Origin: Candidatus Omnitrophota bacterium
Lineage (GTDB): Bacteria; Omnitrophota; Gorgyraeia; Gygaellales; Profunditerraquicolaceae
NCBI GenBank assembly: GCA_041662125.1
Contig: JBAZTA010000002.1
Coordinates: 9,064 to 73,063 of the forward strand
Direction: 5' to 3'
Length of the DNA stretch: 64,000 nucleotides
The position numbers and the translations under genes were made by a program. How positions within the stretch are numbered: the first letter of the stretch is position 1; every line of letters begins with the position of its first letter. The notes under the pieces were generated by a model. That model ran no database searches and had not been told where the DNA came from. It was given only the letters and a program-made list of their open reading frames with translations. This document shows positions 3 to 24,000 of the stretch, piece by piece.

Positions 3-3000
3 GAAGCTAGCAGTTCAATCTGTATTGATAATGCAATAAACCAGCTCCTTGTTTTAAGAAAGATTAATGTGACGAGTATCCATCCCGATGCATTGAAGGT
101 AATTGAACAAGAAGCGAAGGCATTATATACAAATAACATAGAGTGGGTGATTAAAAGTATTCTAGGGAAAAACTCACAAGATCAAGTCACTGATGCGGAG
201 ATAAAGCTTTTACTGGAAAACGCAGAGATTGAGTTAGCCGTTATGCTTTATTCGCCTGTCCTCCGGCCGGATAATTTACTTCATCCCAATACATTGAAGA
301 AAGATATTCCCGTTAAAGGAGGGATACGTATTTTATCGCCCGTGATTGCTGAAGCAGTGATTGCTGAAATTGTAAAAGAACTAGAAGTAACATTCTCTTT
401 AAGCAAACTCTTAAACGAGTATAGAAGTAACAATAAAAGATTGTCAGTGGTAGGTAAGTATACTGGTGGCTTAATAACAGGGTTGCTTCTTGCACAGAAG
501 CTCAACTTGCCTTTCGATACACTTACTAAGCGACCTTTTAACTTTGAAACTTGTAATTTAGTGGTCACTAAGGTCGAAGAGCCCCACCTTCCAATTGATA
601 GTCCAGAATACTATTCTCATATGGTAGTTTATCCTGGCACAGGCGCTATAGTCGTAGATGATGAAATGACTAAAGGTAATGTCATTGTTAATACAAATAG
701 AGCTTTGGATGCGCTTGGAGTTAAGGTTGAGGCGAATGTGATAGTTCTGCAATCTACGGTGGAATCCGGAGTAAGGTTACGGGAGGAAGGATTAGACTAT
801 TACGTAATGGGGAGTATGGATTATGACCAAAAAGCAAACTTAGAAAGGCCAATGTTCCTGCCACTTAAGAAAATCAAAATAAATAGTAATCAGCAATTAT
901 TTTTCGGAGAATTCAATGCACATAGAGATATCCCATTAGTTGCATATGCCTTAAAAGAGCAATGTGGCAAGAAACACTATTTCGTCGATCATCCGCTTAG
1001 GGGTATGACCATGGCATTGGATGCAGATTTCTATGCTTGCTTCGCACAAATGATAAACGAAGAAATAGGTAAAATTGTCGGGAATATAGGTGCAGCAAGA
1101 AAGAGATATTATGAAAAAGGAAACAGTTTGTATATACTTGGACTAACGCCATCAGGGTTATATCCTGCATTGGCTGCTTCAATGGTTTCTCGGATTCCTC
1201 TCATAGGAGTAACGAATCAATCAGAACCCAGGGGATATCCAGGAGAAGTGATTACCTATATTACTTTAGGTGGTTCTGAATATTCTATTTACAATCTTAT
1301 TAAAGATGACGGTGTAATATTAGTTACAGGAGAGGTTATTAATGGAGAAGAACAGCTAAGAGTTATAAAAGCGTTGAAAGATAAGCAAATAGATGTATTA
1401 GGAGTAGTCTCTGCCATTGAAAATGCTAATTATAATGGGCAGGAGTGTATAGAAAAAATTACTGGAGTGCATTCAAATTCTTTCTATCATTATTCCTACG
1501 ATGAAAAAATATACTCAATAAATTTCTCTGACAAAGTTTGGAGTGCTTTGAAATATGCTGTTAAAGAAATAGAAAGGCAAATAAAAATTCTTAATCCAGA
1601 AGCAGGGATACTAAAAATACAAGTAATGCCATGTTCTTTAACTAGAGGGTTAATGCTTTATGGCAGTGATATTGATCACATGTATATATATATCAATGGG
1701 TTGAGTCAGGTCCAATTAGCAAAGCTAAATACTTTATTTTCTGGTTTATTAAGAATAGAAGGCTTAAATCTTGCAGATACTAATGAGAGCGCCCCCGTAT
1801 TATTATCAACGGAAAATTTAGAGGCTTACGAAGCTAAATATGAATTAAATGATATTCCGCAAATAGTTATCTATAGAAACGGTAAGTTTAGAGATATTTT
1901 GGAACTGGCCGAAGAAAGCAATGTTATGGAGTCAATGCGATTTTTTGAAAGAAACGCTGCACGAGTAAAGCTGCTTTTATTATTAAATGAACTGGATCCT
2001 TTATTGGGGAAGGCTTTTCTTAGATTTAGTTCAGTTAATAAGTATCAGCAAGATCTGGCGAGCTTTATGGATAATGCGCATCAGTATATATTGTCAGAAC
2101 CTGCCAAACAACTTGTGATTACCTTGGATGGCCTGTATAGAAGAAAACAGTGGCAATATAAGATTAATCATGAAGAAAGCGAAGTTTTGGGAGAGGTTTT
2201 GAATGAGTTAACCGAATTCGGTTTAGTAAGAATATATCATAATGCAATTATTCCTTTATGGAGATTGCATGGGATAAGATGGACAAAGCGTTTCTGGGAG
2301 CGTCAGATTAAAATTTCTAGCGATGAAGTCAATATTGAGGAAATATTAAACAAGGTGCAAGAAAAAAATGTGCTCTTTTTATCAGATATAAGTGACGATG
2401 ATCTTATTAAATTATTCCGTTCTGATGAGCCGCTTAAGGTAGAGCAAGCTATAAATGAAATTGGTCACCGCGATAACTTAGTTTCTCAGCTAGCCGAAGA
2501 GCTTATCGATAAGCTAATGTATCCTTCTGTGTTCGTGATAGCCGCTGCAATCAATGTGATTAAAAACCACGGGATAGTATTCCTACCCAAACTAAATAAA
2601 CAGCTTTTTGAGGTAACAAAATCTGGAAAGTTAAATGATATCTTTGGTCCTATGCAAGGGAAGGCACATTTAATTATCAATATACTATTTGATTTAGCTG
2701 TTGAAAATGTTGGGTTAACCGACCAAGTGGTTAGTTTTATATATGAAGATGTATTATCAGAAATTGAGAGGTTTTCAATTCCTCATATTTTGCCGGTTGC
2801 CCTTATGCAAGAGATTAGTATTCATTTAGGCAATATATTTAATAGTATATCTAATATTCAATTGAAAGAGAACGTCTACAGATTGCTTGTTAGGGCACGA
2901 GAAAGTAACGTGGCACGTACAAAAATGGTTGCTTCCGAAGCATTGGCTAAGGTAAAAAATAAGTCCCCTATTGCGGTAAATCATAATGTCGAGATAAGCA

Positions 3001-6000
3001 TAGATGTGAATTCAACCGAAGACGAAAGAGCATTAATTTTTAATGAATTGGAGAATAGAAGAAAAGCGGGTCAGTCTATTGAAATGATTATCGCTGACTA
3101 CGATGAAACCTTAATTAGATACATCCCTGGGGAAAACCGAACTCTCAAGCCTCAAGTATGTTTCTGGCTTAATTGGCTTATGAATAATGGCAGGCGTTTG
3201 ATAATTGCAACTGGCTCTACCTACGAGAGATTCTTTAATACCGCTTTAGATGAAAGGCTACCGATTCCTTTGATAAACTTAAAAGAACTGCATGTGTTCA
3301 CAGAAAACTGTAAATTTTATAATAATAGGGTGACTAAATTTGAAATTATCCCTAGAAAACTGAAAGAACATATTGCCGGTATGCTTAATGTTGAAGGATG
3401 GTATGAGTTAGACGATAAAAAACGTCCAGGAATTCGATTTGTAAAAGCAAATTTAAATAGATCTGAAACAATGACAGTGGCTAGAAGGCTGAACAACGAA
3501 CTTTTACGTTTAGGTTATAATTATGAAGTTATTGTTAATCGTTTAAGCGGACTGGGTGATCTGTGGGCAATAGGTATCTATACAATTACAAAATCAATCA
3601 TATTTGACCCTGCATTTTCATTAGGTATTAATAGCAACAAATCAATGCTTATATTTGACGATGCAGGAGAATTTGGGGTTGATAGATCTTTAAGTGTGCA
3701 TGCAAATGGCGCAATAATGGTGAATGTAGGAGAAGAAATAGCCACACCTATAGGGATGTATCAACTAAAAACCAAGAATGAAGATGGGGCAATTTTAGCA
3801 ATAGAGGCTTTGGTTGCCGCTACTATGAAAGAAATGTATGGAAGAAATTTGAATAATTTATTTCAAGAGTTAAGAATGAGATTGATTCAAACCAAGATAT
3901 TCGAGAACTCCGAAGTGGATTTGATTCTTCGACCTGTCAAAGCATTAACTTTAAAATGGTCATCATCAGCAATAACTATTACCGGGCACACTGGTGACAT
4001 CGGAACTGAGCTGGCACGATTTATCCTTAACAGAAATTTACCAATACGAGTGCTCGTAAGAGAAGAATCTATCCAAAAATCCCTCATGCGATTCAAAGAA
4101 GACGCGGAACTTATAAGGTATTATATCGGCGATTTATTATCTTTCTCGACAATAAGAGAGATGGTGTCTTCTACTACTAAAGTATTTTACCATCTTGGCG
4201 CAATGGTGAGTCAAGAATTTAGTTCTGAACAAAAAGCGTTAGTGTTAGCAATAAATGGTTTCGCAACAGGGTTGATTGTGAAGGCAATAAAAGATTCTAA
4301 TAGAGATATTAAATTAATTTATGCATCTAGTCAAAGAGTCTATCAGCTCTATAACCGGAAAGATGTAGTGGGTTTCATCCAGATTGCATACGATATGTTT
4401 AATAAAGAAATAGGATGTTTTTTTGATCCCTTAAATGCCGAAGTTAAAAGAAGAATATTAGCGGTAAGTCAGGCCTTATTAGATAAACTTCCGCCCGGAG
4501 TAAATATTTACGATATTTCAAAATTACTTGGAGAAAAGTTTGCTAGCGATCTCTCCAATATGACGATAGTCCGTATCAGTAATGTGTATGGCCCAGGACT
4601 TACAGGAAATAGATTGGTACGAAGGCTTATGGGAGGAAGGTTCTCTATTCAAGGTATTGAAATAGTTAATGAAGAAAGAAATTATATTTATTCTAATGAT
4701 TTGATTGAAATATTATTTAAGATTGGCGTTAATGTTAATTCGCCAAGAATCATAGATATTGCAACAGGAGCACAACTTGCCATTGAACAATTGATTAATG
4801 TTATATATAAGTTTACTCCGGACTGCTCAGGCATATTAACTCCGGTTGGTTTACACAAGCCTACTTCTGAGCAGGACGGTGATATTGCCAGGGAAATATT
4901 GGGCAGAGATTTTGTAGATTTGGAGACTGGGTTAAGAAATACTATAGATGATTATAGGTTAAGCGAAACGGATAATTACGTTCACTCGGATCCTGATATC
5001 ATTGTTTTTGATATCGGGGGAACTTCAGTGCGAGCAGGAATTTATAATAGAACAAAAGGAATTTTTAGCTTTATCAAAGAACATTCTCCAAACTTTTTCC
5101 TTTTAAATAGTGATGTTGAGAAAATGCAGGAAACGTTAATCCGTATATTAATCGACACAATCCAATATTTAAGGCTAGAGAATCCGAACAAGACACTGAA
5201 TTATGTAGGCATTGCTTTTCCTGGACCGGTGAATAACGATGGATTTATTACTGGTGCGGCTACTTTGTGGGGCAAAGCAGGAGAGGGCATTTATTATAAT
5301 TTAGCCACACATCTGAAGAAGACTATGCCTGATTTAAAGGAAGTGTTTGTATTAAACGATAATAGTGCGGCTACTTTTAGATATGTATACGAAAAAGATA
5401 TTGAAAAGATTTGTTTGGTTACAATTGGCTCTGGAGTAAGTAATAAGATAAATGATAAGAAGCAGGGGTTGTTAATGGACAAAACTGGGCTTACTGGAGA
5501 AATTGGACATTTGAAAGTCGATTTTTCACGCAATGCTTCTTTATGTGATTGTGGCGGAAGAGGCCATTTGGGTAGTGTAGCGAGTGGGAGGGCGGCTGAA
5601 AGGTTAGTAAAGAAAATGGCAGCACAACAACGTTATCGGATTCTATTTGAAAATTCTTTACTCTTCAAGTTAAGTGGTGGTGTCCCATCCATAATCGATA
5701 ATTCTATGTTAGTTAAGGCTATCAAGAATAATGATAAATTCGCCACGATAATCTTAGATAGGTTCACTTTTTATATGGCCTTGGCGATAGTGCACATTAA
5801 TTGTTCTCAAGTAATAGAAAAATTCTTTATCACTGGTGGCTTTGCTAACGCCTTAGGTCAGCATTATATAGAGTCATTGAAAAGAAACCTTAATAAGCAT
5901 GATTTTTATGGGAGAAAAGAAAACTATGTTGATTCTCTCGTTGAGTTAGGATATTCTGATGATTTAGATTGTTTAATTGGAATGGGATATTACGTAGATA

Positions 6001-9000
6001 ATCATCTGTTAACAAGAAAGCAATCTCTTATCGCTTACAAAGGAGATTTAAAAGAGTCAGCAGGTCAGCATAATAGTGTGCTTATTGAAGCAAGTGCTTC
6101 AGAAAAAATTGAATTTACGAATTATTTTACTACAAATATATTTAGTGAAACGAATACTATATTAGCTTCCTTATGTGAAGGTAGAAGTATTACAGTTGTC
6201 GTTGATGAAGTTATATTTGATTTATATAAAGATGCGGTGAGGAACTATTTAGAAAAACATAAGATTGCATTCACTTTGTATCCTTGGGCAGGGGCAGAAA
6301 GTAATAAGAATTTAGATTCAGTTTTAAGAATGATTAGTAAAGCAATAGAAGATAAAAGGGATCGCAAATCAATTTTTGTGGCAATAGGTGGTGGAGCATT
6401 AATGGATGTTGTAGGATTAGCAGCTCAGCTTTACAGAAGACAAATAGATTACATTAGAATTCCTACTACTTTGCTAGGGCTTGTTGATGCAGCGGTTGGT
6501 GTCAAAGTGGGAGTTAACTATGAAGGGCATAAGAACTTCGTCGGTAGTTTCCATGCCCCTTATGCCGTTATTAGCGATTCAGCTTTTCTTAGTACTTTAG
6601 ATGCAAGACAAATGAGGGCGGGTGTAGCAGAAATATTAAAAATAGCGATAGTATCCGATAAGGAGCTTTTTGAGCAAATTGAACAATGGGGTAAACAGTT
6701 AATTAATAATGAGCCATTTCATAAGAAAGATGGGATTATTAAACGGGCAGCTGTTGAATTATTGAAGCATCTTCAGCGCGACTTTTATGAAAGAGATTTA
6801 ATGAGACATGTAGATTTTGGCCATACTTTTGCCCATCAAATGGAAGATATGAGTAGATATTCATTATTGCATGGAGAAGCGGTAGGTATAGATATATTGT
6901 TCTCTAGTTATATTGCATTGCGGAGAGGTATTCTGCCAATTCTTGTTTTCCATAGGATTGTCAATTTGATTAAAAGTTTGGGATTACCTTTATTTGATGT
7001 CTCAATTAATTTTAATGAAATATGGAATGGTATAGAGAAAGCTAAAGCTCATAAGGGCGGCAAGCTTACAATGGTAATTCCTAAAGAAATCGGGCAGACG
7101 GTATTTATCAATTCTTTATCTAAACAGGAGATTAATGGAACCCTGGTTTATTTTAAGAAATTAAATGAAAACACGTTTCAACAAGATTCAAGTAGCCCGG
7201 TAAAATCAGAAAGGCGAGTTAAGATTGAAGAAAAACTAGCGGCGCAAGATCTGGAGCATAAGGTATATCTGATAGAACAAAAGCATATTAAACAAGTAAA
7301 AGATTTGTTTGTAAGGGGTTATGACTTTGATGTAGTTTATCATCCTGTGGAGGACTGGGATTCTGGTAAGCTATTCTCGTACTATGGAGAATTTGAACAG
7401 GTAGAAGACCCGGATGCTGGTAAGCCGTTCTCTCACTATGCAGAATTTGAATCTGCTGATAGGCCGGAAAGATTAGAAATTGTGGTCAAATCAAGCAGCG
7501 GGATAATATGGGCTTTGCCTCCAGAATTGCTGGAAATAGCATTAACTATTAGGTGTAACTTAAAGTGTCTTATTTGCTCAAGGTTTAACAATGACTGGCG
7601 TAAACAAAAATTAGCATATATATCTTTAAAGCATTTCGAGCATATTTTTTCCTCATATGATTATCCATTTCCTCGCATCCAGTTTTGTGGCACCTCAGAG
7701 CCAACGCTTAATCCTCAATTGGTGGATTTTATTCACTATGCTGCAACAAAAATGGCTTCCGGAAAAGAAATAGAGCTTATTACTAATGCTATATTACTCA
7801 CTCCTGCTCTTAGTATGGCATTAAAGGATGCAGGATTAACTTTATTAAAGGCGAGTATTGACGGCCCGGTTGAAGAAAGGTCACAAGGCGCCCCTCGACA
7901 AGCTCGGGGTAAACAGGTCTCAGGTCGCATGTTACAAGATTTTGGGTGTTTGGTGGGAGCAAGAAGCTCGACTTCACCCTTACGCGCTATAGATCAGGTT
8001 TTAAATAGTGAAAATAGAGTGTTTGGAAAGAGTATGATCCAATCGGTTATGCCTCGCGCTCCTCCGGCTATATATTCATCCGCTATTTCTATAGAAGCGA
8101 TTGGTAGGACGTTAAACCATTCAAGCAGCGCGATCACTGAAGCTCGCAACCGGCGCATATTACAGAGAGTGGTGAATTTCTTGTCAGTGAGAAATGAGTT
8201 AGAAAAAGTTGAATTGATGATGGTGTTGGGAAGTCCTGATTTGCGAATCCCGGAAGTTGCCGCTGAACTGTATAAGCAGGGTTATGCATTTAAGATAATT
8301 ACTTCCGGAGCCAGAGGCAGATGGGGTAATCAAGATTGGAAACTGACAGAAGCGCAGATTTTTAAGAAGATAATGGTAGAGAGAGGCGTGCCGAAGAAAG
8401 TTTTCTTACCGATGGATAGAAAAGCTACTAATACGGGAGCGAATTTGAGGAATATTATTGCTATTCTGAAGAAAAAGGAGATAAAGCCGGAGAGTATTTT
8501 ATTGCTTCAGACGCCTATTTCACAGAGAAGGACATGGGCTAATTTTACCCATGATTTTGAAGCGGAAAAAGGTTATTTCGGAGCAGTTAAATGTGTCAGT
8601 TATGCGCCGTATATCCCTGATGTGGCAGCAATGAGTTATGAGGAATTCTACAAGTTGCTTATTTTTACCTGGGGAGAAATAGAGCGGCTTGTTGAATATA
8701 CCTATAACGGTTGGTTAGATAAAAAGTTATCTAGAGTTTCTAAGAAAATGGTGATGCAAACAGCCGCAGCTTACATGGATGAACGAAAGAAAGAATTAGC
8801 TAAAAAGTTAGTTTCCAGTAGCCCGATACAATATACCGTTAATCGGTACCAACCTCAGGTTTATAGTGTTGATATGTGGGTTAATAAAGTTCCGAATGGA
8901 AGATATTATTTCAATAGAAAAACCAGCGTGGTTGAAACAACTATGCCTCATGATCCCAAAGCGCATGTTACAAAAATTGTAGGCAAACCAATAGAAGAAG

Positions 9001-12000
9001 CATTGGCTCAATATCAAAAGGGATTAGATAAGGATAGAATGTTGGTTAACCTTATCTTAGATGGTGACCTTTATAATAATGATTATTCCTGGACTTTTGT
9101 AAACGGGAAAATATATACTAATACCGAAGAAACAATTGAATATGCGGAGAACTTATGGTTAAAAGATATATATTTTTCCTTGATCATTCTCGAAAATGGC
9201 AGCTGGTCTATTGAAGATGTGAGAGTTAGAAACTTTGAGAAAATAGTCCATGATGATGGTTCTATAGAGTTTGTCGGCGCCAGGGTCTATCGTTTGGGTG
9301 GATCAGAGATAGAAAACGTTAAATATGCCAAATCGTTGAAAAGAAGGGTAGTCAATGGGCAGGTTGTAGATGTTGCTGATGTAGCGCTAGATTGCGCGGA
9401 TATGAATTGGCTGTTCAGGCTGCCGTTATTTAAGAAATTACAGACTGAAAAATATCGCGAGCTGTATTTTGGGACTGCAGAGTTGGCTACGGATAAGAAA
9501 AAGAGAGTTTTAGCGGCAGGCGGAGAAACTGTTGAACTTGGTTTAGCCGAATTAGACACTTTAGTATTCGGAAATAATTTAGCTGAAGAATATAAAGAAG
9601 CATTAATTGAAAAGGTGTTTGGAGATTGGGGATACGAGCGGGTAAAAGAAACAAGTGATATCATTGCCAGAGGCCAGTATGTTCTCGACCAGCAGAATAA
9701 CAAAGTTATTCTCAAGTTATTAGAAGGTATCAATCCTTTGAATCTGATCGGTATTGATAATGATGGTAATTTAGTCACTGTCGAGATCCATGGGGAAGCT
9801 CGTAAAGCAGGTGATTTGAGCACCGGGACAACCATGAATAAAGCCGCTCTTCTGATGAAGGAATTAGGTATTGTTAACGGCGGCATGTTGTCAGAGAGTA
9901 AAGATGTAAAGTGGTATAACTCGGATGGTACTTGGAAGTTCCAGTATGAAAATACTACTGCTATGGTATTTGTGACGAAAACAAAATCTGCCGGCAGCCC
10001 GATCCGCGCATTACTAGTTATAGTTGGTTTATGGGGTATAGTTTTTATTATTTGGCGTATATTCAAGAAATTGAACAGCCACTTGTTAGTAAAGCAAGTA
10101 GATATGTTGTTAGATAATACAATCCTAAGTTTATTTTCAAATCTGCACTATATTAATACCGAGATATTACAGATAGTTGAGCCGGGAACGGTTATTTTGT
10201 CAGAAACTGTAATTTTTGTGCCTAATTTATTGGCTGAATTTGATGATTCGCGTGTGGCTATAGTACATGGAGAAGGTAAAGGTAATGCTTTTATACGAGT
10301 GTCAGCGTTAAGGCAAGTTAATCCAGACAGAATTAATGATTACCATACACTTGTTTGGGAACTCCAGCGAATGGGATATACCATTAAGCATGTGGGATAT
10401 GTAGCATTTGAGAACGTTGATCTTAGTTCAGGGAAAACAAGCAGCCCGATTTTAGGAGAGTTTAGAATTAAGTGGTATCTCTGGAAACTAAGTAGTTCTG
10501 ATTCGTTCATTCAAGAAAGGGCATATAAAACTTTAAGTGAATTAGGTATAACTGTGTTACAGGTGATTCAGCGTTATAAAAAGGACGATAAAATATTAGA
10601 GGTTATTAATCGTAACATAGATTTCTTAAACTGGTATTTTAAGCGGGAATCTGTTTACAAGATTACTTGTGAATCTGGGGAGCGATGGGGAAGCGATGGG
10701 GAAGGGACAGGAGGAGCTTGTTTAAAGTCTTATTTTAATGCTAGTAGGGAGTTGGTTTATAAAGGGTATATGCGTAAGGGTGTTGGAGCAGAGGTGGACT
10801 TTGAGGAGTATGGGGAAGAGGTGGAATATCATAGTGCTGATGAATCTGAGCCTTGGTCAACTCCTTGGAAAGTGGAGACTTTTTATCGCCGTAAGATTGA
10901 ATTAGCTTTAGTGGAATTGAAAGAATTCGCTTTATCTCTTACACAGGAAAATGTGCAAGTAAAAATACACGAGTTGATGGTGAAGGCGAAATCCAGTAGT
11001 CCGATTGAGGATATACAGCAGATCACAAGCTGGGAGTCTTCTGAGGCAGTGTTTGTGTCAGAAATGCCGCTGGCCGAGGCGCCGGAATTGCTTGAGATAG
11101 AGACGTCCAATAAGTGTAATCTAGGCTGTGTCATCTGTTTCCATTCAACCAAAGAAATTAAGCAGGAGAAGCCTGCATATTTGCCTTTGCAGGATTTTAA
11201 ACGTATTCTGGATTCCTATGATTATCCTTTACCGAAGGTCCAGTTCTGCGGTTCTTCAGAGCCGACACTTCATCCTGAATTGCCGGGTTTTGTTGCTCAT
11301 GCAGCAATAATGGATCAAGGTAAAGGAGTGGAGTTGATCACGAACGCCACGCTCCTTACGGCTGAACTTGCAAAAGCTTTGAGCGATGCAGGGTTGACTT
11401 TATTGAAAGCAAGTATAGACGGTCCTGATGAGGTATCATACCGGGCGATCAGGGGACATGATCTTTATCCTGTATTGCGAAATCTTACAAGACTTTCTGA
11501 AATAACCAGTATCCCACTTTGGATAAATTGTGTGGTTACTCAGTATAATTTTAACAAACTCGCTCATATGCCTGCTCTTATTGCTTCTGTCGGTGCAAAA
11601 TATCTTGCTTTTAGGCTCTTTGAATGGCAGACCTCTAAGATTGGTACAGTAGGTTATTATGATAGCAAAGAGCTTAAAAATATGCTCGCGGCCGTGAAGG
11701 AAGAATGTGTAAAGAGAGATATCGTATTGATCTATCCGGATATAACAGAGACAGTAAATAAGGAATGTTTCTTGCAAAAAGAAGCGAATGTTAATCATCG
11801 CGGATTCTTGACACCTTGTTATTATCAACCTCGGGAATCCGTGGGTGAGAAATTAGGAGCTCGAGAGTTCTCTCAGGTCTGGAACAGCGAGGTAATGCGG
11901 AGAATCAGGGCGAATATCAATAATGGCATATATCTGCCTGAATGTTGTTGTTTGGATGCGATCTTCGCTCAGACTCAAACTGATCCTCAATTTCATTATC

Positions 12001-15000: not shown

Positions 15001-18000
15001 GTTATACTTTAGAGTTTGTGCCTGGCCGTTTTGATATCAAGGCTTTTGGCACGGTCAATCCTAAACTGCATAAGTTTGTGCATGACGGTAGAGTAGTGAC
15101 CATCCGTCAGGATGGAACGCTGGAAGGGCCCACTCAGGCTCTTCAGGAACATTTCGGCGCAAATATAACCGGTAATTTCCGTTTAGTTTTGAGCCGCGGG
15201 AATCAATCAAAAGAAGTTTCTGTAACCGAGCTCCTGGAAATACCGGGCATAATGTTTGCCAGTAAATACCAGCCGTCTTTCCCATCTCCTTCAGGAACAG
15301 AGATAGTCGATTATTCCGCGGAAGGTATGCTCGCTCAGAAGCGTTTTAATGAACTGGGAGGAGAAAGCCAGTATCACACCTTTAGTAGATTTTCTTTTGG
15401 CAGCGCTCTTAACGACGGGAAAGAAGTTGCCGGAAGCCTCAGGTTTACCAGGCTTGATCGCGGACATTCGTTGCGGTTGGTAGAAGCGCTTCAGGAATAC
15501 GCGTTAGATAAAGAAAACAGCTTGATCGGTGAGTGGAAAAATAGCGGTATGATCGATACGCGGATTGAAGAATTCTTCCGCGGGCTGGGCGTAAATTATT
15601 TTGCTCTTCTGGCGACAGGTAAGCTGTTGATCATTCTGGGCTCTGGCCGTATTTTGCATATGACGCTTCCTGTCAGGATTATGCCTCTGGATGAGACCTA
15701 TAAGTTCTTCCTCTATAACGTTGATATTATCAAAGGCCGTTTAGCAGACCTGGGCGATTATCTGGATATAAAAGAAAGTACTAATGATGTTGATACCCTA
15801 AGAGATATCCGTGAATCGACCGCGATCATGCTGGCTATGGTTTCTCAGTTGATACGTGATCTAGAAACAGCCGGAATAACTCAGGCTGATGATGCCCGCA
15901 GGCAGAAGTTCCTGGGAGCTTTTGCGGAAGGCTTTGCCAATAAAATCGTGCAAAAAGAGCTTCTTCCTGCTCCTGTTATGTTGAATGATATTACCTATAT
16001 ACGTAATGAAGAGAAGGTGCTGTATCATCGTTTGCAGCGCATATCCCGCCAGAAACTTTCAGATAATTTTGAGAATTTAGTCCATCTTCTTACTGCAAGT
16101 ATTCAGCCGGTGATGGCGCAGTGGCCGGTATTAGATTTCTCAGATCCCTTAGCTTTTAACATGAATGCCAGTGTTCCTTATCGTTTCAGCCCTTACGAAG
16201 ATTACACAGACAGAACAAAATATCCCGATCTTTGGTCAGAAACCAGGTCCGCGCTTAAGCTGCTTGCTGAGAGCCAAAGGCCTCAAGGCTACCCGGCTTA
16301 TTTCTGGAAGATCCGGGGAGAAGAGCTTGCTGAAAGAAAAGATCTTTTGGGTAATGGAGGGCGTTTGGCAAAATTGACGGGCGCTCTTCATGAAGCGTTT
16401 AGCGCGCAGAAGAATACGGTTTACGTCGATGAGCAGAAAGTATCTTTATTTGAGGCTTTAGATGAGCTTAATGTTTTGATCAAAGAGTCCAAGAAGGCTT
16501 ATCAGTCTTCCTCGAGTGCGATAGAGGCAGAAAAGGATCAGGGCTGGAACAGTGAAGGTATCTGTATCGCGGCGCAGACGTTATACCGAAACACGCAGTA
16601 CGGATGGGCGCGGCGGTTTGTTGAGGACATATATCGGGCGAACGCGGGGAGCGAGTTATTTGTGGCAGCGGCAGAGCGAGCGTTAGGGCGGTTAATGTTT
16701 GTGAAGCATTACCGAGCAGGGGTGGGATATATCACGCATCAGGTAGGGTTATTGGAAAGTGTGCCGATCGAGAAGTGGGATGAAGACAGGTCGGTGATGA
16801 AGGTATTGAAATGGTATGGGAATGGAGAGGCAGTGAGGAACGCAGAAGCGATAGAATTTATCGTATCATTTTACGGGATACTGAAGTATTGTCAAGAAGG
16901 GCAGAATCAGAGGAAATGGTTTGTAGGTGAGATATTGAGCATGTTGGCGTGCGAGGAAACAGAAAGCGTGGCGTACCACCGAGCGTTAGGGGTGTGGGAA
17001 TTGATCAAAGGGAGGGTGAGCGAAGAGCATAAGGTATGGTGGAATAAAGTAGCAGGAGAAGCTCGGTTAGATCAGGCGGTGATGAACCGGTTGAGGATAT
17101 TGCTTGGGCAGAAAGAACCGCGGGGTAAGATCAACAGAAGATCGGAATATGAGTTAGATGGTGCGCGATCGTTTAGAGAGCGGTTAGGGATATTAAAGGA
17201 AGCGATCGTGGTGGAAGGCGTTGAAGGAGTGGTATTGCAGAAGGCAAGCGGAGATTACCAGGTGACGATAGGAGCGGACCTGTTGACGCATTCAGATTGG
17301 GAGTTAGACGCGAGAGTTCGGTGGCGAAGGAAAGGCCAGCAGCAGTGGCAGAGGACAAAGATGTATAGTATTGGCGCATACCGATGGCAGGGGGTATGCG
17401 AGATAGGAAAAGATGATCCTGAGGATTACGAGTATACGTTGACGGCCTGGGTGAATGTGGGGGAGACCTGGAGACAGAATATCCGTGAGCGATGTGTGCT
17501 TGCGCCTGAAGAGATCAATGATATCAAGAGCGATGTGCTGCTGGGGATAGAGTTATTAAAGCAGATGATCACGGAATACGGGTTAGAGGGCGAAGAGGCG
17601 GGGAAGGTGAATAAGCATATTGCGTCATTAGAGATGGAAGCGCAGTACGCGGGAGATATCTGTGTGATCTCAGAGCGGGACGAGTTGAAGGAATTGATGG
17701 TGAAGTATCCGTTACGAGACCATTTGATCAGGTATGAAACATACGGGCCGCAGCTGAAGGTGGTAGGGGATAAGGTGGTCAAGAACGATAAATTGGTATG
17801 GTTATGGAATGAAAAGCCGATGGTAGATGACGGAGAGTATTCGGCAAAGAGGATTGTAGGAGAAGTAATAGAGGTAGAGATAGATACGATCATTATAGAT
17901 ACGAAACGGGTAATGTTAAAGTACCGCAGGAAGTGGCAGGCAGAGCCGTGGCAGCAGACAGTGATGGAATGTGTGAGTAGGGATGGGGTATACCGGTGGA

Positions 18001-21000
18001 AAGGTAAATTTAAGGCAGAAGAAGTTGGTCGGTATGAGGTAAGTTTTGAGATAGAAGATGGCTCAGGGTTAGTGTACCGGTATGAAGATGAGATCACGGC
18101 GCTCGAAGTGATGGTGAGCCCGGAAGTGGCGCGGTTCGGGACGTGGTATGCATCGTTCCCGAGATCGTTTGGCGGGTTTCGTGGGTTGATCAAAGATATT
18201 GAGCGGGTAGCAGGAATGGGATTTGATGTTTGGTATTTACCTCCGATCTATCCGATCGGGATAACCAATAGGAAAGGGCGTAACAACAGTTTAGTAGCAG
18301 GAGCGAATGATCCAGGGTCACCGTGGGCGATCGGGAACATTTATGAAGAAGTAGAAGGAGACCGCGGCCATAAATCAGTGCATCCCGGATTAGGGACAAT
18401 AGAAGATTTCAGGAATTTCAGGGAAGCGGCAGAGTCAAAGGGGATGAATGTCGCGTTAGATCTGGCGTTCCAGTGTTCACCGGAGCATCCATATGTAAGG
18501 GATCATCCGGAATGGTTTTATTTGCGTCCGGATAAGAGCATCAAATACGCGGAGAACCCGCCGAAGAAGTACCAGGATGTATACCCGCTTAATTTTTATC
18601 CTGAAAATAACGGGGATATGGAAGCGTTATGGAATGAGTTGAAGAGCGTGGTAGAGTTCTGGGTCGTGCAGGGGGTGAAGATATTCCGGGTGAACAGTCC
18701 GTATAAGAACCCGTTTCGGTTCTGGCAATGGCTGATCGATGAGATCCATAAGGTGAATCCAGAGGTAGTGTTTTTATCAGCGGCATTGACGAATCCTAAG
18801 GCGCAGCGGTTATTAGCGAAAGCAGGGTTCCAGTTGTCGTATACGGATTATCCGGCGCGCAACGACCGTGCGCAGTTAGAGGAACTTATCAGCGATGCGC
18901 AAACAGGGATAGCGACGTGTCAGACAAAGGAATACTTAAGAGGGTTATTGCCGGCCAATACGCCTGACATATTATCGAATTGGTTGAGCCGTGTGCCCAA
19001 GACAAAGGTAGAATTAGAACGGGCGTTTAAGATAAAGTATTTGTTGATGTTTTTGTCTCCGAGCGTGATGATCTATGGGCCGGCGTATGAATTGTGCTGG
19101 AACCAGCAGGTAGAACAGGGCGGGGTGCGGGAGTACGAGGATTCAGAGAAGTACCGGATCTACAACTGGCCAGAGATCATAAAAGAGGCACAAGAGAATA
19201 ACCAAGCGGATATCAGCGGGTTTATCGCGATGGTGAACCGGATCAGGAGAGAACATCCGGCGTTACAGTCTGATGAGGTACGATTCATAAAAATAGAGGG
19301 ACAGGAGCACCGGCCGGAAGACCAGCATCATATGGTGGTGTTCATGAAACGCTCGGAGGATAAGACTGAGACGATGATCGTGGCGGTGAACATCGATGTG
19401 TCGGGCGCGATGCGCTGGGTGAACGCGACGATACCGGTACAGGAGATGGGGATCGGCTGGGGCCAGACGTATGTGTTGGAAGATGTATTGAACCAGGGGG
19501 AATCCTACACCAAGAACAGCGCGGTCGTTGGTATTGGCCGTGGCGGAGAAAAAGATATCGCCCATATCTTTATCGTGAAAAAATCCTCTTCGGCAATTTC
19601 TGGTTTTGATGCTGAAAAACTCTGTCTTACCGCGCAGTTGTGGTATGCCAAAGACCGTTTTACCTGGGCTGAGAGATTCAGCCAATACTATTGGGAGAAT
19701 GCGCAGTCGGAATTCTTCGTGCCTGCGGCGGAAATTGCCCTCGCAAGGTTGCTTTTTGATAAGAACTTCTACGAAGGGGTAGCGTATGTCTTGCACAGGG
19801 TTAACTTATTGGATCCTGCTCCTATATCTGCGTGGGGGGATGATAAGTCAGTCGTTAATGTCCTGAAATTGTATGGGAATGGTTCAGAGGGAAGAAGTAA
19901 TACCGAGATAGAAAGATTAAGTAATGAAATAGTTGATTTTATGGTTTCTTTTTACGGATTACTTGCGCACCGTAAAGAGGGACAGCGGCAGAGAAAGTGG
20001 TTTATAGGGCAGGTTTTGAGCATACTGGCCAATGAAGAGCCGCAGAGCGTTGCCTATGAACGGGCATTGTCCGTATGGCTGGGAATAAAAACTAAGGTTA
20101 ATGATGAACATATAACATTCTGGAATGAGATAGTAAGCGGGATCCCGCTTGAAGAAAATATCAATAACCGCATAAAAATATTCCTGGGTAAGAGAGATGT
20201 TCGGTCAAGAATCATCCGCAGGGCAGATTATGATGAAGCAAGCGTTAAACCCTTCAGGCAACGGTTAGGTATTTTAAAGGAAGCTATCGTTTTTGATAAT
20301 ATGGAAGGCGGGGTTGAGCAGTTGGGTGATGGCCGGTATAACGTTATTATCGATGTGGATATGCTGGTCCATGAAAGCTGGGAATTAGGAGCCAAGATAA
20401 AGTGGAGTTTAAAAGGGCAGGACCAGTGGCAAGAAGCCTCTATGTTTGGCATCGGAGCCTATCGCTGGAAAGGGATCTGTTATATCGATCAAGAAGCTCC
20501 CCAGGATTATGAGTATTCGATAGAAGCCTGGGTAAATGTCGGTGAGACCTGGAGGCAGGAAATTATCAAGCGCTGCCTGGCTGCTCCTCAAGAGACCGTT
20601 GATATTAAGAGCGATGTGTTGCAGGGTATTAAGTTGTTAAAGCAATTGAGCAGTGATCGTTGTTTTGAAGCAGGTCAACTTCCGCGGATCGATAATCTTA
20701 TCAGGCAGTTCGAGGATAAAAATGCTTCTTTACCGCAAGGTGAGCTCAGTTTTGAGGTAAGGCAGGATTACTCCAAGAGCGTTTGTCAGCTTGCGGATAG
20801 TGACGATATCAAAGGATTGATGTTTGAGTATCCGTTGCGCCAGCATCTGATCCGGTATGACGTGTACGGCCCGCAGATAAAGGTAACGGGAAATAAAGTC
20901 GTCAAAAATGATCAATTGACTTGGATATGGAATGAAACTCCGGTTGTCAATGGCGGAGAATATCCTGTTAAGCGGATCGTAGGAGAGCCGATAACTGCTA

Positions 21001-24000
21001 CGATGGAGACGATCATTATCGATTCTCAATCGGTATTGTTAAAGTATCGCCAAAAGTGGGGAGAAACTCTCTGGCATACGGTTGAAATGGAATGTATTAA
21101 TAAAGACAGGGCGTACCGGTGGCGGGGTGAGTTTATTCCTTTAGAAGTGGGGCGCTATGAGATCAGCTTTGAAATCCGAGATATCGCCGGGCAGGTATAC
21201 AAATATGAAGAAGAGATAACGCCGTTAGAAGTAATGGTAAGTCCTGTGGCAGCGCGCTTCGGGACCTGGTATGAATCGTTCCCGCGGTCGTTTGGCGGGT
21301 TTAAAGGGATGATAAATGATGTAGATCGTGTCGCAGGGATGGGATTTGATATATGGTATTTGCCTCCGATACATCCGATCGGAGAGACTAAGCGTAAAGG
21401 AAAGAATGGCAGCCTTACCCCCGAGCCTGGTGCTCCGGGTTCCCCATGGGCAATAGGTAATATTTCTGTAGCAGTTGAAGGGGACCGGGGACATAAGTCA
21501 GTACATCCTGATTTAGGGACAATGGATGATTTTAGAGATTTTGTCGCTGCGGCGCAAGCAGTCGGAATTAAAGTTTCCCTGGATTTCGCGTGTAATTATT
21601 CCCCGGACCATCCGTATGTGCATGATCACCCTGAATGGTTCAACCGTAGGCCTGACGGCAGTATTAAATACGCGGAGAACCCTCCGAAAAAATATGAAGA
21701 TATTTATCCTTTGAATTTTTATCCCGAAAAAGACGAGGATATGGAAGCGCTGTGGTTTGCTATTAAGGACGCGTTTGAATTCTGGATCGAGCAGGGCGTT
21801 ACCGTTTTCAGGGTCGATAACCCTCATAAAAAACCATACGGCTTCTGGCGCTGGCTCATCGATGAGATACATAAAAGACATCCGGAGACGATCTTCCTGG
21901 CTGAGGCTTTTACCAACGCCAAGATCATGAGGCTTTTAGCCAAATCGGGATTCCAATTATCGTATACCTATTATCCGTGGAAGAATAGCAAGCCTCAATT
22001 GGAAGAATTTATTTTAAATCCGGAAATAGGGATCATGACCTGCCGGACAAAAGAATATTTCAGAGGGCTTTTGTCGGCGAATACTCCGGATATACTCCCT
22101 GAGTGGCTCAGCCGTATTCCCAGAAATAAGGAAGAACTCGAGCGGGCGTTCATGATCCGCTATATCCTCATGCTTATGTCGCCGAGCGTGATGATCTACG
22201 GGCCGGCGTATGAATTATGCTGGAATATGCAAGAAAAAGAAGGCGGTTCTACGGAATACCGCGATTCCGAGAAATTTGAAGTAAAACGCTGTAAAGAATT
22301 TTTGCAAGCCGCAAAAGAAGATGCCTTGAAGTCTCCCGAGGAAAGATCTATCCCCGACATCAGCGGCTTTATTACCGCGGTCAACCGGGTGAGAAAAGAG
22401 CATCCCGCGTTACAATCAGACGATATCCGTTTCATCAGAATAGAAGAACAGAAGCGCCGTCCTGAGGACCAGCATTATATGGTCGGTTTTATAAAGAAGT
22501 CGGTTGATAAGAATGAAGTTGTCCTGGTCATCGTAAATATTGATCCTTCAGGTACCGAACGCTGGGTGAATGCGACAATACCGATTGAAGAGTTAGGCAT
22601 CGACTGGGGAGAGTCATATGAATTAGTTGATGTGTTGAATCCCGGAGAGAAGTATACCAGAGACAGCGCGGTCATTGAGCTCATCCGCGGCGGTAAGAAT
22701 AGGCCCCTTGCTCATATCTTCGTGCTTAAGAAATTGCAAGATAAGGCATCTTCAGCAATTGTAGCCGCCTCCAGTGCAATAGGGGCAGAAGAAGATTCCT
22801 GGAGCAGCGAGGGGATCTGTATCGCGGCGCAGACGTTGTACCGAAGTGCGCAGTACGGATGGGCATTGCGGTTTGTGGAAGACATTTACCGGCCGAACGC
22901 GGGGAGCGAGGGATTTGTGATGGCGGCGGAGCGCGCGTTAGGGCGGTTGTTGTTTGTGCGGCATTACCGCGCGGGAGTGGGGTATATCACGCATCAGGCG
23001 GGGTTATTGGAAAGTGTGCCGATCGAGAAGTGGGATGAAGACAAGTCGGTGATGAAGGTATTGAAATGGTATGGTAACGGTGAGGCGGGCAGGAACGCGG
23101 AAGCGGTGGATTTCATCGTATCATTTTACGGGATCCTGAAGCATTGTAAAGAAGGGCAGAATCAGCGGAAATGGTTTGTGGGGCAGATTTTGAGTTTACT
23201 GGCGTGCGAGGAGAGCGATAGCGTGGCGTACCACCGAGCGCTGGGGGTATGGGATCTGATCAAAGGGCGGGTGAGCGAAGAGCAAAAGGTGTGGTGGAAC
23301 AAGGTGATCGGGGAGGCGCGGTTAGACCAGGCGATATTGAACCGGATGAGGATCCTTCTTGGGCAGAAAGAACCCCGGGGGAAGATCCTGAGACGGGCAG
23401 AGTATAAAGAGGAAGCAGGGAAATCGTTCAGGGATAGGTTAGGGATATTAAAGGAAGCGATCGTGGTAGAAGGAGTGGATGGAGTGGTATCGCAGAAGTC
23501 AAGCGGGGATTACCAGGTAGTGATCGGGGCGGACCTGTTGACGCATTCAGACTGGGAGTTAGACGCGAGAGTGCGGTGGCGCAGGCGAGGGCAGCAGCAG
23601 TGGCAGGGTGCGAAGATGTATAGTATCGGAGCGTACCGGTGGCAGGGGGTTTGCGATATCGGGAAAGACGATCCTGAGGATTACGAATATACGCTATCGG
23701 CATGGGTGAATGTGGGAGAGACCTGGAGGCAGAGTATCCATGAACGCTGTGTGCTGGCGCCGGAAGAGATCGCTGATATCAAGAGCGATGTATTGCTGGG
23801 GATCGAGTTATTAAAGCAGATGATCACGGAATACGGGTTAGGGGGCGCAGAGGCGCTGAAGGTGAATAAGCATATTGCGTCATTAGAGATGGAAGCGCAA
23901 TACGCGGGAGATATCTGTATGATCACCGACCGTGAGGAGTTGAAGGAATTGATGGTGAAGTACCCGTTACGAGACCACCTGATCAGGTATGAAAATTACG

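Follow-up and report, generated by a model that had tools for sequence, protein, structure and literature searches.

The window, which is the whole 64,000-nt stretch of DNA that was analysed, is read through by a single frame on the plus strand (aa i = nt 3+(i-1)*3). This frame has no stops in 21,332 codons, whereas the other five frames have 35-92 per 1000 codons, and the probability of such a stop-free frame arising by chance is about 1e-645. It is also the only frame in the window with a stop-free stretch of at least 300 aa. It contains over 25 different enzyme domains known to Pfam, no domain can be recognised in about 40% of the window, and the nearest named relatives are "Candidatus Omnitrophica/Omnitrophota bacterium". 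No Met with a Shine-Dalgarno-like site was found at the domain borders, and no minus-strand ORF of at least 80 aa was found to overlap the cassette region. The 64-kb frame represents part of a giant gene of the Omnitrophota multi-enzyme type, a type that has been described in preprints (West-Roberts et al., 2023; Nielsen & Lui, 2026). The features in the frame are listed in Table 1. The motif S-S-S-[A/P]-[I/V/L/M] occurs 22 times and marks the module borders.

Table 1. Features of the giant reading frame.
Feature	Position (nt)	Strand	Remarks
Single stop-free frame, 21,332 codons	3..63998	+	Runs off both window ends
Block A (aa 3-1319), cassette partner	9..3959	+	Collinear with seven homologs, 29-42% identity
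Type-I phosphoribosyltransferase (PRTase)-like domain (aa 134-273)	402..821	+	PRPP loop VVDDEMTKG at aa 217
Rare "unk494" family (aa 503-985)	1509..2957	+	Pol-beta-type nucleotidyltransferase (NTase) fold, winged helix, HEAT/ARM-like repeat
Block A3 (aa 986-1319)	2958..3959	+	Conserved at 0.26-0.40 identity, gap-free
SSSAI junction, block A/block B (aa 1320-1324)	3960..3974	+	SSSAL at aligned position in P0126
Extended-SDR "NAD-dependent epimerase/dehydratase" (aa 1324-1650)	3972..4952	+	Pfam Epimerase 53.7 bits, aa 1324-1586
ROK-family sugar or cyclitol kinase (aa 1664-1985)	4992..5957	+	Pfam ROK 73.5 bits, aa 1670-1979
EEVS-like sugar-phosphate cyclase (aa 2024-2390)	6072..7172	+	Metal ligands E2210, H2274, H2290; NAD motif GGGALMD
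SSSPV junction closing block B (aa 2396-2400)	7188..7202	+	End of homology to all relatives
Truncated radical SAM fragment (aa 2504-2624)	7512..7874	+	Keeps CxxxCxxC and GGE-like motif
Complete radical SAM/SPASM module (aa 3691-3974)	11073..11924	+	Parent or paralogue of the truncated copy

The initial annotation had proposed a cyclitol/aminosugar-like cassette at nt 3972-7885 that consists of an NAD-epimerase, a ROK kinase, a DHQS-like cyclase, and a radical SAM enzyme fused in frame. The four domains are borne out by Pfam in one frame at these positions, with nt 3972 corresponding exactly to aa 1324 and nt 7885 to roughly aa 2628, where the radical SAM homology ends. However, the conserved cassette begins about 1,320 aa further upstream and ends at about aa 2395. 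The in-frame fusion is correct and was understated, as the frame has no stops at all. Other organisms share the fusion of the SDR, ROK, and cyclase domains. The initial annotation did not recognise that the cassette forms one half of a larger super-module with upstream PRTase-like and NTase-fold domains, or that a single giant ORF of the multi-enzyme type spans the whole window. Blocks A and B together make up this conserved super-module of several enzymes, which is about 2,400 aa long and lies inside an Omnitrophota-type giant protein.

The homologs collinear with block A are P0126, P0122, P0127, P0123, P0129, P0136, and P0140. The block A homology of another protein, P0121, starts exactly after an SSSPV motif. 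The Pribosyltran Pfam match of the PRTase-like domain is weak, its homolog in P0127 is above the cut-off (27.5 vs 26.3 bits), and the domain matches the adenine PRTase 5b6h with an E of 0.002. Its GKYTGGL and DDExTxG motifs are kept in six of six homologs. The N-terminal NTase fold of unk494 spans about aa 509-625 with invariant S545 and S555-D556-x-D558, and is followed by the winged helix and then by the C-terminal helical repeat. The unk494 domain adjoins the cyclase gene in an operon at L001 and on the P0001 contig, and is fused directly with the cyclase in L002, P0124, P0125, and P0128. This NTase-fold domain is a near-obligate partner of the cyclase clade. The conserved neighbouring kinase in the stand-alone cyclase operons (two closest loci) belongs to the hexokinase family. 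Block A3 has no Pfam or PDB match.

The SDR domain carries the motifs TGHTGDIG (aa 1327), SSQR, and YDISK (aa 1503) and a conserved insertion of about 55 aa. Its GxxGxxG and S...YxxxK motifs are kept in six of six collinear homologs, and its similarity to any characterised SDR is only distant. The ROK domain carries FDIGGTS (aa 1669), LNDNSA, GEIGH, and the zinc motif CDCGGRGH (aa 1848). It scores 74 bits with the ROK glucokinase subfamily model, which is far under the cut-off, and its top PDB matches are ManNAc kinases and glucokinase (E 1e-10). Both domains have diverged too far for their specificity to be assigned.

The cyclase domain is matched by Pfam DHQ_synthase and DHQS_C at aa 2097-2345, and all the motifs that had been quoted for it (GGGALMD, IPTTLLGLVDAAVGVKVGVN, KNFVGSFHAPYAVI, GHTFAHQ, and HGEAV) were found. 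Its best matches among solved structures are DDGS 5TPR (219 bits) and the EEVS ValA 4P53 (218 bits), compared with 169 bits for the best true DHQS and 98 bits for the DOIS BtrC, by far the weakest of the solved cyclases. AROM gives just 88-118 bits. The residue fingerprint retains D146, K152, N162, E194, K197, H271, and H287. The DHQS residue K250 is replaced by L, K356 is lost, R264 is displaced one position like in ValA and DDGS, L267 is replaced by V, and N268 is replaced by D (D281 in ValA, A in DDGS). The site of ValA H360 is His in the cyclase and T in DDGS, and both sites that discriminate EEVS from DDGS agree with ValA. The cyclase clade exhibits His at the ValA P288 site, as at the DHQS H275 site and unlike ValA and DDGS, and Leu or Glu at the ValA Met site. 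Because of the differences at these two sites, the substrate or product of the clade may differ from that of ValA. The cyclase is about 35-38% identical to ValA-like proteins and, in an NJ tree rooted on DHQS and built without DOIS, EVS, aminoDHQS, and EboD references, is located in a separate 11-member clade inside the ValA/DDGS group. Many close stand-alone homologs carry the NCBI name "sedoheptulose 7-phosphate cyclase". Based on the structure scores, the fingerprint, the names of the NCBI homologs, and the NJ placement, the domain is assigned to the sugar-phosphate-cyclase side of the superfamily and not to AroB. This agrees with the initial annotation.

In block B (aa 1320-2395), three enzymes are covalently fused: an extended SDR, a ROK kinase, and a sugar-phosphate cyclase of the EEVS/DDGS branch that is predicted to be catalytically intact. 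The SDR-ROK-cyclase order is common to the long proteins P0122, P0126, P0127, P0129, and P0136 at 33-42% identity. The catalytic motifs checked in the SDR, ROK, cyclase, and PRTase-like domains are all intact and kept in these five homologs, except for the ROK zinc motif that is absent from P0129 and P0136. The alignment with the relatives is almost gap-free from block A up to about aa 2395. P0126 is a complete stand-alone gene of 2,787 aa on an independent contig that is collinear with both blocks. Since the order is the same in five relatives, the motifs are kept, the alignment is nearly gap-free, and a complete P0126 gene exists, the sequence comparison indicates that the fusion is real and selected. 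The N-terminus of P0126 is a signal-peptide-like segment; export of the module, if it occurs, would make chemistry that depends on ATP and NAD difficult to account for.

The sugar-modifying neighbours that had been proposed for the cyclase hold for the SDR and ROK domains with their intact motifs, but the radical SAM domain is a truncated duplicate outside the block. None of the relatives shows homology beyond about aa 2395. The fragment consists of the N-terminal 120 aa or so of the radical SAM domain, with CNLKCLIC at aa 2518, and is without the remaining barrel and the SPASM domain. It is 57% identical to aa 3691-3810 of the complete copy (67% DNA identity over 260 nt), and the homology ends after AGLTLLKASIDGP. 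No remnant of the missing half was found in the other frames. The complete module lies between the motifs SSSPI (aa 3664) and SSSAM (aa 4001), and in the relatives complete radical SAM modules recur adjoining the cassette. The truncated duplicate is probably inert.

The cassette product is probably a phosphorylated carbocyclic pseudo-sugar. The term "aminosugar" is not supported, as no aminotransferase was found in or adjoining the cassette. The proposed likeness to biosynthetic operons is upheld by the acarbose and validamycin pathways, which open with an EEVS followed by a ROK-type cyclitol kinase. In acarbose, AcbC (EEVS) is followed by AcbM (ROK-like cyclitol kinase), reductases, an NTase, and a pseudo-glycosyltransferase, and ValC is likewise ROK-like (PMC9200736). 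With somewhat more confidence than doubt, we favour a super-module in a giant protein that performs an acarbose-like early route from cyclase to ROK cyclitol kinase to SDR, with putative substrate and product. With NAD+ and a divalent metal, the cyclase would turn a sugar phosphate, most likely sedoheptulose 7-phosphate, into a keto-cyclitol, most likely a 2-epi-5-epi-valiolone-like C7 cyclitol. The ROK domain would re-phosphorylate the cyclitol as AcbM and ValC do, and the SDR would reduce or epimerise the ring ketone. Block A would then activate or conjugate the pseudo-sugar phosphate via nucleotidylylation or phosphoribosyl-type transfer. The pathway of smaller relatives would be completed by a GT2, a CofD-like transferase, and a hexokinase.

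Sequence alone cannot fix the substrate of the cyclase; EboD, a predicted SH7P cyclase that in fact uses mannose-6-P, is a precedent. We regard a hexose-6-phosphate route as doubtful. In this route, the kinase, which is ROK in the cassette and a hexokinase in the stand-alone operons, would supply Glc- or Man-6-P, the cyclase would form a C6 deoxy-inosose as DOIS and EboD/DEIS do, and the SDR would yield a deoxy-inositol. EboD shows that mannose-6-P use is possible among the SH7P-like cyclases of the tree, the families closest to the ROK domain are glucokinases and ManNAc kinases, and His is kept at the DHQS H275 site. The hexokinase gene in the two closest stand-alone loci fits a kinase that supplies hexose-6-P no less well than it fits a cyclitol kinase. 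However, the cyclase agrees with ValA at both EEVS-vs-DDGS sites and in the shifted Arg and the Val, BtrC is its weakest cyclase match among the solved structures, and partners of the EboA, B, C, E, and F types are missing. That the domain is a bona fide AroB for aromatic amino-acid synthesis, joined by chance to sugar enzymes, is highly improbable. The Pfam name and the JGI annotations read "3-dehydroquinate synthase" and the TIGR01357 aroB model scores 247 bits, but its cut-off is 305 bits, true DHQS structures score at least 50 bits lower than DDGS and ValA, and no shikimate-pathway domain besides the DHQS-like cyclase was found in 21,332 aa. The residue fingerprint already contradicts this identity, as none of the substrate residues specific to DHQS (K250, R264, N268, and K356) is retained.

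The cassette could also be a non-catalytic passenger in decay, in which case the ORF would be a patchwork of captured gene fragments that is kept open for another reason (scaffold or surface protein). The truncated radical SAM duplicate directly downstream, the share of the window that has no recognisable domain, and the strong difference in GC3 between modules (0.29 in nt 3972-7202 vs 0.57 in nt 16000-26000) are consistent with such decay, which is nevertheless unlikely against the retained motifs (apart from the ROK zinc motif), an almost gap-free alignment over 2,390 aa, and the stand-alone gene. An assembly or sequencing artefact, either a chimeric contig or lost stops that join separate genes, is hardly credible. 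GC content varies along the window, but a few errors cannot yield zero stops in 64 kb, the domain borders have no start signals, the same fusions are seen in independent ENA, JGI, and NCBI assemblies, and long reads have closed giant genes of this type (10.1101/2023.11.21.568195; 10.64898/2026.06.07.730766).

The window ORF resembles the giant "multi-enzyme metabolic" or Archaeovorin-type proteins of Omnitrophota in its length (more than 21,000 codons), its many unrelated enzyme domains, its scattered TM helices, and its nearest named relatives. The domains they share include ROK, radical SAM, HAD, NUDIX, PPDK_N, GGDEF, GT1/4, and TPR. Neither the 2023 nor the 2026 preprint mentions a dehydroquinate-synthase-like or sugar-phosphate cyclase domain, describes the super-module of blocks A and B, or reports the inter-module motif. 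The 2023 preprint states that the cleavage points are unknown, and the words polyprotein, cleavage, linker, and processing do not occur in the 2026 preprint.

The cassette cyclase resembles AROM as a DHQS-fold cyclase covalently joined to consecutive pathway enzymes, but AROM carries a true DHQS and shikimate-pathway enzymes whereas the cassette partners are an SDR and a ROK kinase. It resembles EboD, compared by description only, as a member of the SPC superfamily that is annotated as DHQS, lies near EEVS/DDGS, and belongs to a cryptic pathway whose end product is not known; however, the ebo partner genes (UbiA prenyltransferase, TIM-barrel, and phosphodiesterase) do not accompany the cassette. 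ValA and the acb and val clusters are also among the closest known systems. The cassette cyclase exhibits the same fold and cofactor sites and matches the shifted Arg, the Val, Asp281, and His360 of ValA, but it differs by its identity level, its separate clade, His for Pro at the P288 site, and Leu for Met. As in the acb and val clusters, the cyclase is accompanied by a ROK-family kinase and an NAD-dependent oxidoreductase, and plausibly by a nucleotidyltransferase step in the super-module. The cassette enzymes differ in being joined in one polypeptide instead of being encoded by separate genes, and their host is an uncultured ultrasmall lineage instead of an actinomycete. They are accompanied by a Pol-beta-type instead of a GlgC-like NTase in block A, and by neither an AcbO-type epimerase nor an aminotransferase.

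The window carries a single stop-free frame on the plus strand (giant frame) that starts at nt 3, covers 21,332 codons and is open at both window ends. The remaining five frames contain 35-92 stops per 1000 codons, and the chance probability of such an open frame at the base composition of the window is ~1e-645. The amino-acid composition of the giant frame is ordinary. The initial annotation had described an epimerase (SDR), a ROK kinase, a DHQS-like cyclase and a radical SAM domain at nt 3972-7885 (aa 1324-2628) as fused in-frame. All four domains were confirmed in one frame by Pfam, all the motifs that had been quoted are present, and the fusion extends over the entire window. Separate genes with internal starts at the domain borders were ruled out since no Met with an SD-like site was found there. 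No minus-strand ORF of at least 80 aa overlaps the cassette region.

Judged from the alignments with homologs, the cassette is larger than initially annotated, and the conserved block reaches from aa 1 to ~2395. It consists of block B (aa 1320-2395, SDR-ROK-cyclase) and of block A (aa 3-1319), which comprises a PRTase-like start (A1), a rare family (unk494, aa 503-985) and a last part (A3, aa 986-1319). Both blocks together are referred to as the super-module. The features of the giant frame and the arrangements in homologous proteins are shown in the table.

Features of the giant frame and arrangement of homologs relative to it (aa i corresponds to nt 3+(i-1)*3)
Feature	Position (aa) or order	Strand	Evidence or remark
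Epimerase	1324-1586	+	Pfam PF01370, 53.7 bits
ROK	1670-1979	+	Pfam PF00480, 73.5 bits
DHQ_synthase + DHQS_C	2097-2345	+	Pfam PF01761, 115.9 bits; PF24621, 87.1 bits
Radical_SAM stretch, same frame as SDR, ROK and cyclase	2504-2624	+	Pfam
SSS motif, sites 1-11	1320, 2396, 2707, 2938, 3664, 4001, 4526, 5503, 6528, 8613, 9604		
SSS motif, sites 12-22	9831, 10531, 11929, 13862, 14232, 15196, 15329, 15473, 16354, 16407, 17374		
P0126 (2,787 aa)	collinear with 11-2385		41.8% identity
P0122, P0127	block A (8-1322), two rSAM modules, block B (1322-2395)		
P0129, P0136	block order reversed, B then A		
P0124, P0125, P0128, L002	unk494 directly fused to cyclase		often with GT2, once with CofD

The closest stand-alone cyclases, the proteins P0001 and P0002, share 55% and 46% identity with the cyclase of the giant frame. 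Each adjoins a gene for hexokinase and another, unannotated one for a 494-aa protein that matches giant aa 503-983, and GT2 is also found in locus L001. The exhaustive HMMER search with the unk494 segment covered 1.84 billion proteins and returned only 28 representative clusters, mostly inside long proteins, and the word-indexed protein searches returned one match for unk494 and one match for SDR+ROK. The arrangement of the proteins bearing unk494 was determined by local BLAST against the giant frame. The gene of the collinear protein P0126 (L003 455-8818) is complete, lies on an independent contig and is followed by S1 and TyrRS genes. When six proteins are aligned, they stay conserved with essentially no gaps from aa 1 up to ~2395, where the conservation ends. 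The six collinear homologs all keep the PRTase motifs (GKYTGGL, DDExTxG), the SDR motifs (TGxxGDIG, SSQR...YxxxK) and the ROK motifs (FDIGGTSxR, ND, GEIGH), and four of them keep the zinc motif of ROK. SDR-ROK-cyclase is therefore regarded as a fusion that is real and selected, with block A as its regular companion, because of the conserved arrangement, the gap-free alignment and the kept motifs. Two close relatives are named, namely a 'Candidatus Omnitrophica bacterium' fragment with 60% identity to aa 3-626 and one 'Candidatus Omnitrophota bacterium' protein; there is no third named one.

Smaller versions that consist of unk494, cyclase and GT2 were also identified (P0124 aa 1350-1616; L001 11170-12435; L002 aa 301-406 of a 1,720-aa ORF), and P0124 additionally has a CofD-like phospho-transferase domain. 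The stand-alone operons have a hexokinase-family kinase instead of ROK. The cyclase scan of GTDB representative genomes found nothing, and the JGI metagenome scan found L002 as the single related locus.

The cyclase exhibits both superfamily hallmarks, GGGALMD (NAD motif GGGxxxD) and IPTTLLGLVDAAVG (TTLL..VD motif). Its active-site fingerprint was rebuilt from HMMER alignments to PDB sequences and from a 134-sequence MAFFT alignment. In the numbering of A. nidulans DHQS, we take Glu194, His271 and His287 to be the metal ligands and Asp146, Lys152, Asn162 and Lys197 to be the catalytic residues; this numbering reportedly goes back to Carpenter 1998 and Kean 2014. All seven residues are kept in the giant protein and in 8/8 fused homologs. 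The residues that bind the carboxylate and the phosphate of DAHP are replaced (K250 by L, N268 by D, K356 by A, and R264 by M, with an Arg found at +1 that ValA and DDGS share), and L267 is replaced by V. Kean 2014 is also said to describe a ValA fingerprint of 14 sites. At the mappable ones among these, the cyclase does not match ValA completely and departs from it at P288 (His), at the Met site (Leu) and at R361 (Lys). The His at the DHQS-H275 / ValA-P288 site is found in all eight fused homologs. Among the 120 best stand-alone matches, 74 have the ValA-like D/P/H pattern and four have D/H/H.

Several known classes were considered for this cyclase. Among the solved structures, it scores 219 bits against DDGS (5TPR), 218 bits against the EEVS ValA (4P53) and 169 bits against the best true DHQS. 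AroB identity was ruled out by this difference, by the replacement of K250, R264, N268 and K356, and by the score of 247 bits on the NCBIfam aroB model (TIGR01357), which is below the cut-off of 305, although NCBIfam does not separate the cyclase classes, as fragments of ValA and DDGS also score below the threshold on aroB and NF004852. DOIS (BtrC, 2D2X) was rejected as the closest class by its score of 98 bits, which is the second-lowest of 16 solved relatives and exceeds that of one AROM chain only. It has been reported that EEVS and DDGS differ at certain fingerprint sites (PMC4426668). The two sites used here (Asp281 and His360 in ValA numbering) were inferred from the 4P53/5TPR alignment, and the cyclase has the EEVS residues at both (Asp2271 and His2350) where DDGS has Ala and Thr, which speaks against DDGS identity. 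The neighbour-joining (NJ) tree rooted on three DHQS places the cyclase within the group of ValA and DDGS, in an 11-member clade that consists only of cyclases fused to unk494 or adjoining it (two stand-alone members with contigs read). Both the tree and the fingerprint agree with the initial annotation, which had assigned the domain to the superfamily of sugar phosphate cyclases (SPC) rather than to aroB. That assignment holds because the cyclase neither clusters with aroB nor is without the SPC residues. On these sequence features, the cyclase is EEVS-like but belongs to a distinct subfamily, and its substrate is a predicted one.

The SDR domain exhibits TGHTGDIG (GxxGxxG), SSQR and YDISK (Ser...YxxxK), and it is assigned to the extended SDRs (NAD-dependent epimerase/dehydratase). 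The ROK domain exhibits FDIGGTS (ATP motif DxGxT), LNDNSA (catalytic Asp) and GEIGH...CDCGGRGH (zinc motif GH...CxCGxxGC), where the last Cys of the zinc motif is His, and it is assigned by these motifs to the ROK kinase family.

The N-terminal domain of unk494 is likely a predicted NTase fold. AlphaFold modelled the full segment with a pLDDT of 89.7 and the N-terminal 295 aa with 87.2, both at high confidence, and the top Foldseek matches are all Pol-beta NTases (AAD(9), GLD-2, Cid1, CD-NTases, MNT) at E 5e-3 or weaker. S555-D556-x-D558 is invariant and compatible with the NTase catalytic motif G[SG]...[DE]x[DE], and Pfam NTP_transf_2 matches 2/16 members at E 0.08. Among PDB sequences, no match was found for unk494 by profile search and none for block A3. 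The first 500 aa (A1) gave a weak adenine PRTase match, E 0.002.

The radical SAM stretch at aa 2504-2624 shares 57% identity with the first third of a complete rSAM/SPASM module at aa 3691-3974, and at the DNA level the two are 67% identical over 260 nt. The homology stops after AGLTLLKASIDGP, where the domain ends at ~120 aa. CxxxCxxC is present and the complete partial-TIM-barrel core is absent. Continuation in another frame after a frameshift was ruled out, as the missing rest was sought in all frames and was found in none. The stretch is an old duplicate that is truncated and lies outside the conserved block, and it is probably inert. rSAM modules are associated with the super-module in the relatives P0122, P0127 and P0134. 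The region just after the fragment (nt 7875-8120, aa 2625-2706) is locally GC-richer (0.48-0.50) and has an unusual composition (GAPRQARGKQVSGRMLQDFGCLVGARSSTSPLRAID) with no similarity elsewhere in the window in any frame. The cyclitol-type cassette that had been proposed initially thus stands in its SDR-ROK-cyclase part, and the radical SAM domain drops out as a working member because it is a truncated duplicate outside the conserved block. Nothing was found in support of the aminosugar product that had also been suggested.

The motif S-S-S-[A/P]-[I/V/L/M] occurs in 22 copies in the giant frame compared with 0.19 expected (maximum 2 in 300 shuffles), and the Ser codons vary among the copies. 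It is found at the SDR start (aa 1320, nt 3960) and the cyclase end (aa 2396, nt 7188), on both sides of DUF218 (aa 2707, at nt 8121, and aa 2938) and of the rSAM/SPASM module (aa 3664 and 4001), around the GlgE units (aa 5503, 6528 and 8613) and just past GGDEF (aa 9604). These borders agree with the block borders deduced independently from the rearrangements. The close relative P0121 has SSSPV exactly where block A homology begins, and P0126 has the motif at the A/B junction; none was found in the more distant homologs. The cleavage points of giant proteins are stated to be unknown (10.1101/2023.11.21.568195). The motif is a candidate linker or proteolytic-processing signal.

The giant frame also contains three GlgE-like GH13 units, GGDEF, RelA/SpoT, GH77, TPR, methyltransferase, HD, HAD, NUDIX, GFO/IDH/MocA, GT4, additional radical SAM, PPDK, YkuD, DUF218 and the complete rSAM/SPASM. 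This list agrees with two preprints, one on 'Archaeovorin' giant proteins with Radical_SAM, PPDK_N, NUDIX, GGDEF, HAD_2 and TPR (10.1101/2023.11.21.568195) and one on a 'multi-enzyme metabolic cluster' class that has a sugar-metabolism module with ROK, radical SAM and hexokinase (10.64898/2026.06.07.730766). The giant-gene setting is thus already known from preprints; neither of the two mentions a dehydroquinate-synthase-like cyclase. The window exhibits the characteristics of the Omnitrophota giant-protein class, namely a frame of >21,332 aa, where 10,000 aa or more is taken as characteristic, enzyme domains of many unrelated kinds, TM helices, and close named relatives from Omnitrophota. The divergent SecA-DEAD and peptidase domains of such proteins were not found within the window, and the gene ends lie beyond it. 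Approximately seven strongly hydrophobic 19-residue segments (Kyte-Doolittle >=1.9) are scattered at aa 3336, 9243, 9380, 10105, 15482, 15516 and 21082, and are likely transmembrane helices. Relative to the first of these segments, the entire cassette (aa 1-3335) is on one side.

The GC skew of the coding strand is strongly positive (G > C, 0.07-0.38) across nt 1-64000, and the GC content, which is 0.35 at the 5' end, rises to 0.51 at nt 22-26 kb and drops again to ~0.40. Three tandem copies of a GlgE-like maltosyltransferase module of ~1,040 aa (GlgE_dom_N_S, Alpha-amylase, GLGE_C) were identified at nt 16500-25900 (aa ~5500-8635). Copies 1 and 3 share 85-91% identity, and copy 2 shares 45-65% with these. 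The GC3 of 0.57 in this stretch, compared with 0.29-0.31 in the first 7 kb, suggests mosaic origin or recent amplification. A weak ParE-toxin-like Pfam match under the gathering score (E 6e-4) was also observed at aa 8933-8999 (nt ~26800-27000).

EEVS converts SH7P (sedoheptulose 7-phosphate) into 2-epi-5-epi-valiolone. By analogy, the cyclase would form a keto-cyclitol with SH7P as the most likely substrate, the ROK domain would phosphorylate this cyclitol, the SDR would reduce or epimerise the phosphorylated cyclitol, and block A would activate or conjugate the product. In acarbose and validamycin biosynthesis, the ROK-like cyclitol kinase AcbM (likewise ValC) acts after the EEVS AcbC, and reductases, an NTase and a pseudo-glycosyltransferase come next (PMC9200736). 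The order of steps proposed here is taken from that precedent, which applies to the kinase at the family level, and the observed part is the domain identities, the motifs, the fusion order and the partner association. The main rival is a hexose-6-P route where the kinase step comes first and a deoxy-inosose is formed. It is favoured by the hexokinase neighbours of the stand-alone cyclases and by EboD (DEIS), which lies in the same part of the cyclase tree and was predicted to use SH7P but actually uses mannose-6-P. The ebo partner domains (UbiA, TIM-barrel, phosphodiesterase) are absent near the cassette among the Pfam matches. One tension with the proposed mechanism is unexplained. The N-terminus of P0126 is signal-peptide-like or TM-like (MKSRNIRTFVLFLVFIYLNIFGFSPYAQALA), which is odd for a chain of enzymes that need ATP and NAD+.

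Two linked readings may be put forward. The super-module would be an unrecognised assembly line for a nucleotide-activated or base-linked carbocyclic pseudo-sugar. Its parts would be a cyclase of a new EEVS-related subfamily, a cyclitol kinase, an SDR, a Pol-beta NTase and a PRTase of APRT-like type. It might serve ultrasmall predatory or episymbiotic Omnitrophota in making, e.g., a glycosidase-inhibiting pseudo-oligosaccharide, which might be made alongside the GlgE, GH77, GT4 and HAD modules of the same giant protein. The SSS motif that brackets the unit would be the long-sought processing or junction signal that divides giant proteins into functional enzymes. We consider these linked readings unlikely.

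The cyclase forms a small clade of its own and is located inside the giant multi-enzyme proteins of a lineage that is ultrasmall and uncultured, and it offers a new SPC subfamily for study. The tri-enzyme of ~1,075 aa is a concrete, expressible handle on what the 'metabolic modules' of giant proteins make, and the cassette together with the punctuation motif gives a testable proposal for where giant proteins split into working units. The EEVS-related subfamily, the fused SDR-ROK-cyclase unit and the NTase-fold partner appear to be undescribed in the literature searched. The cyclitol and pseudo-sugar pathways (acarbose, validamycin, gadusol, ebo) are known from actinomycetes, cyanobacteria and some eukaryotes, where their genes are free-standing. 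The EEVS-related cyclase identified in this work is fused to a kinase and a reductase, and is linked with a rare NTase-fold partner.
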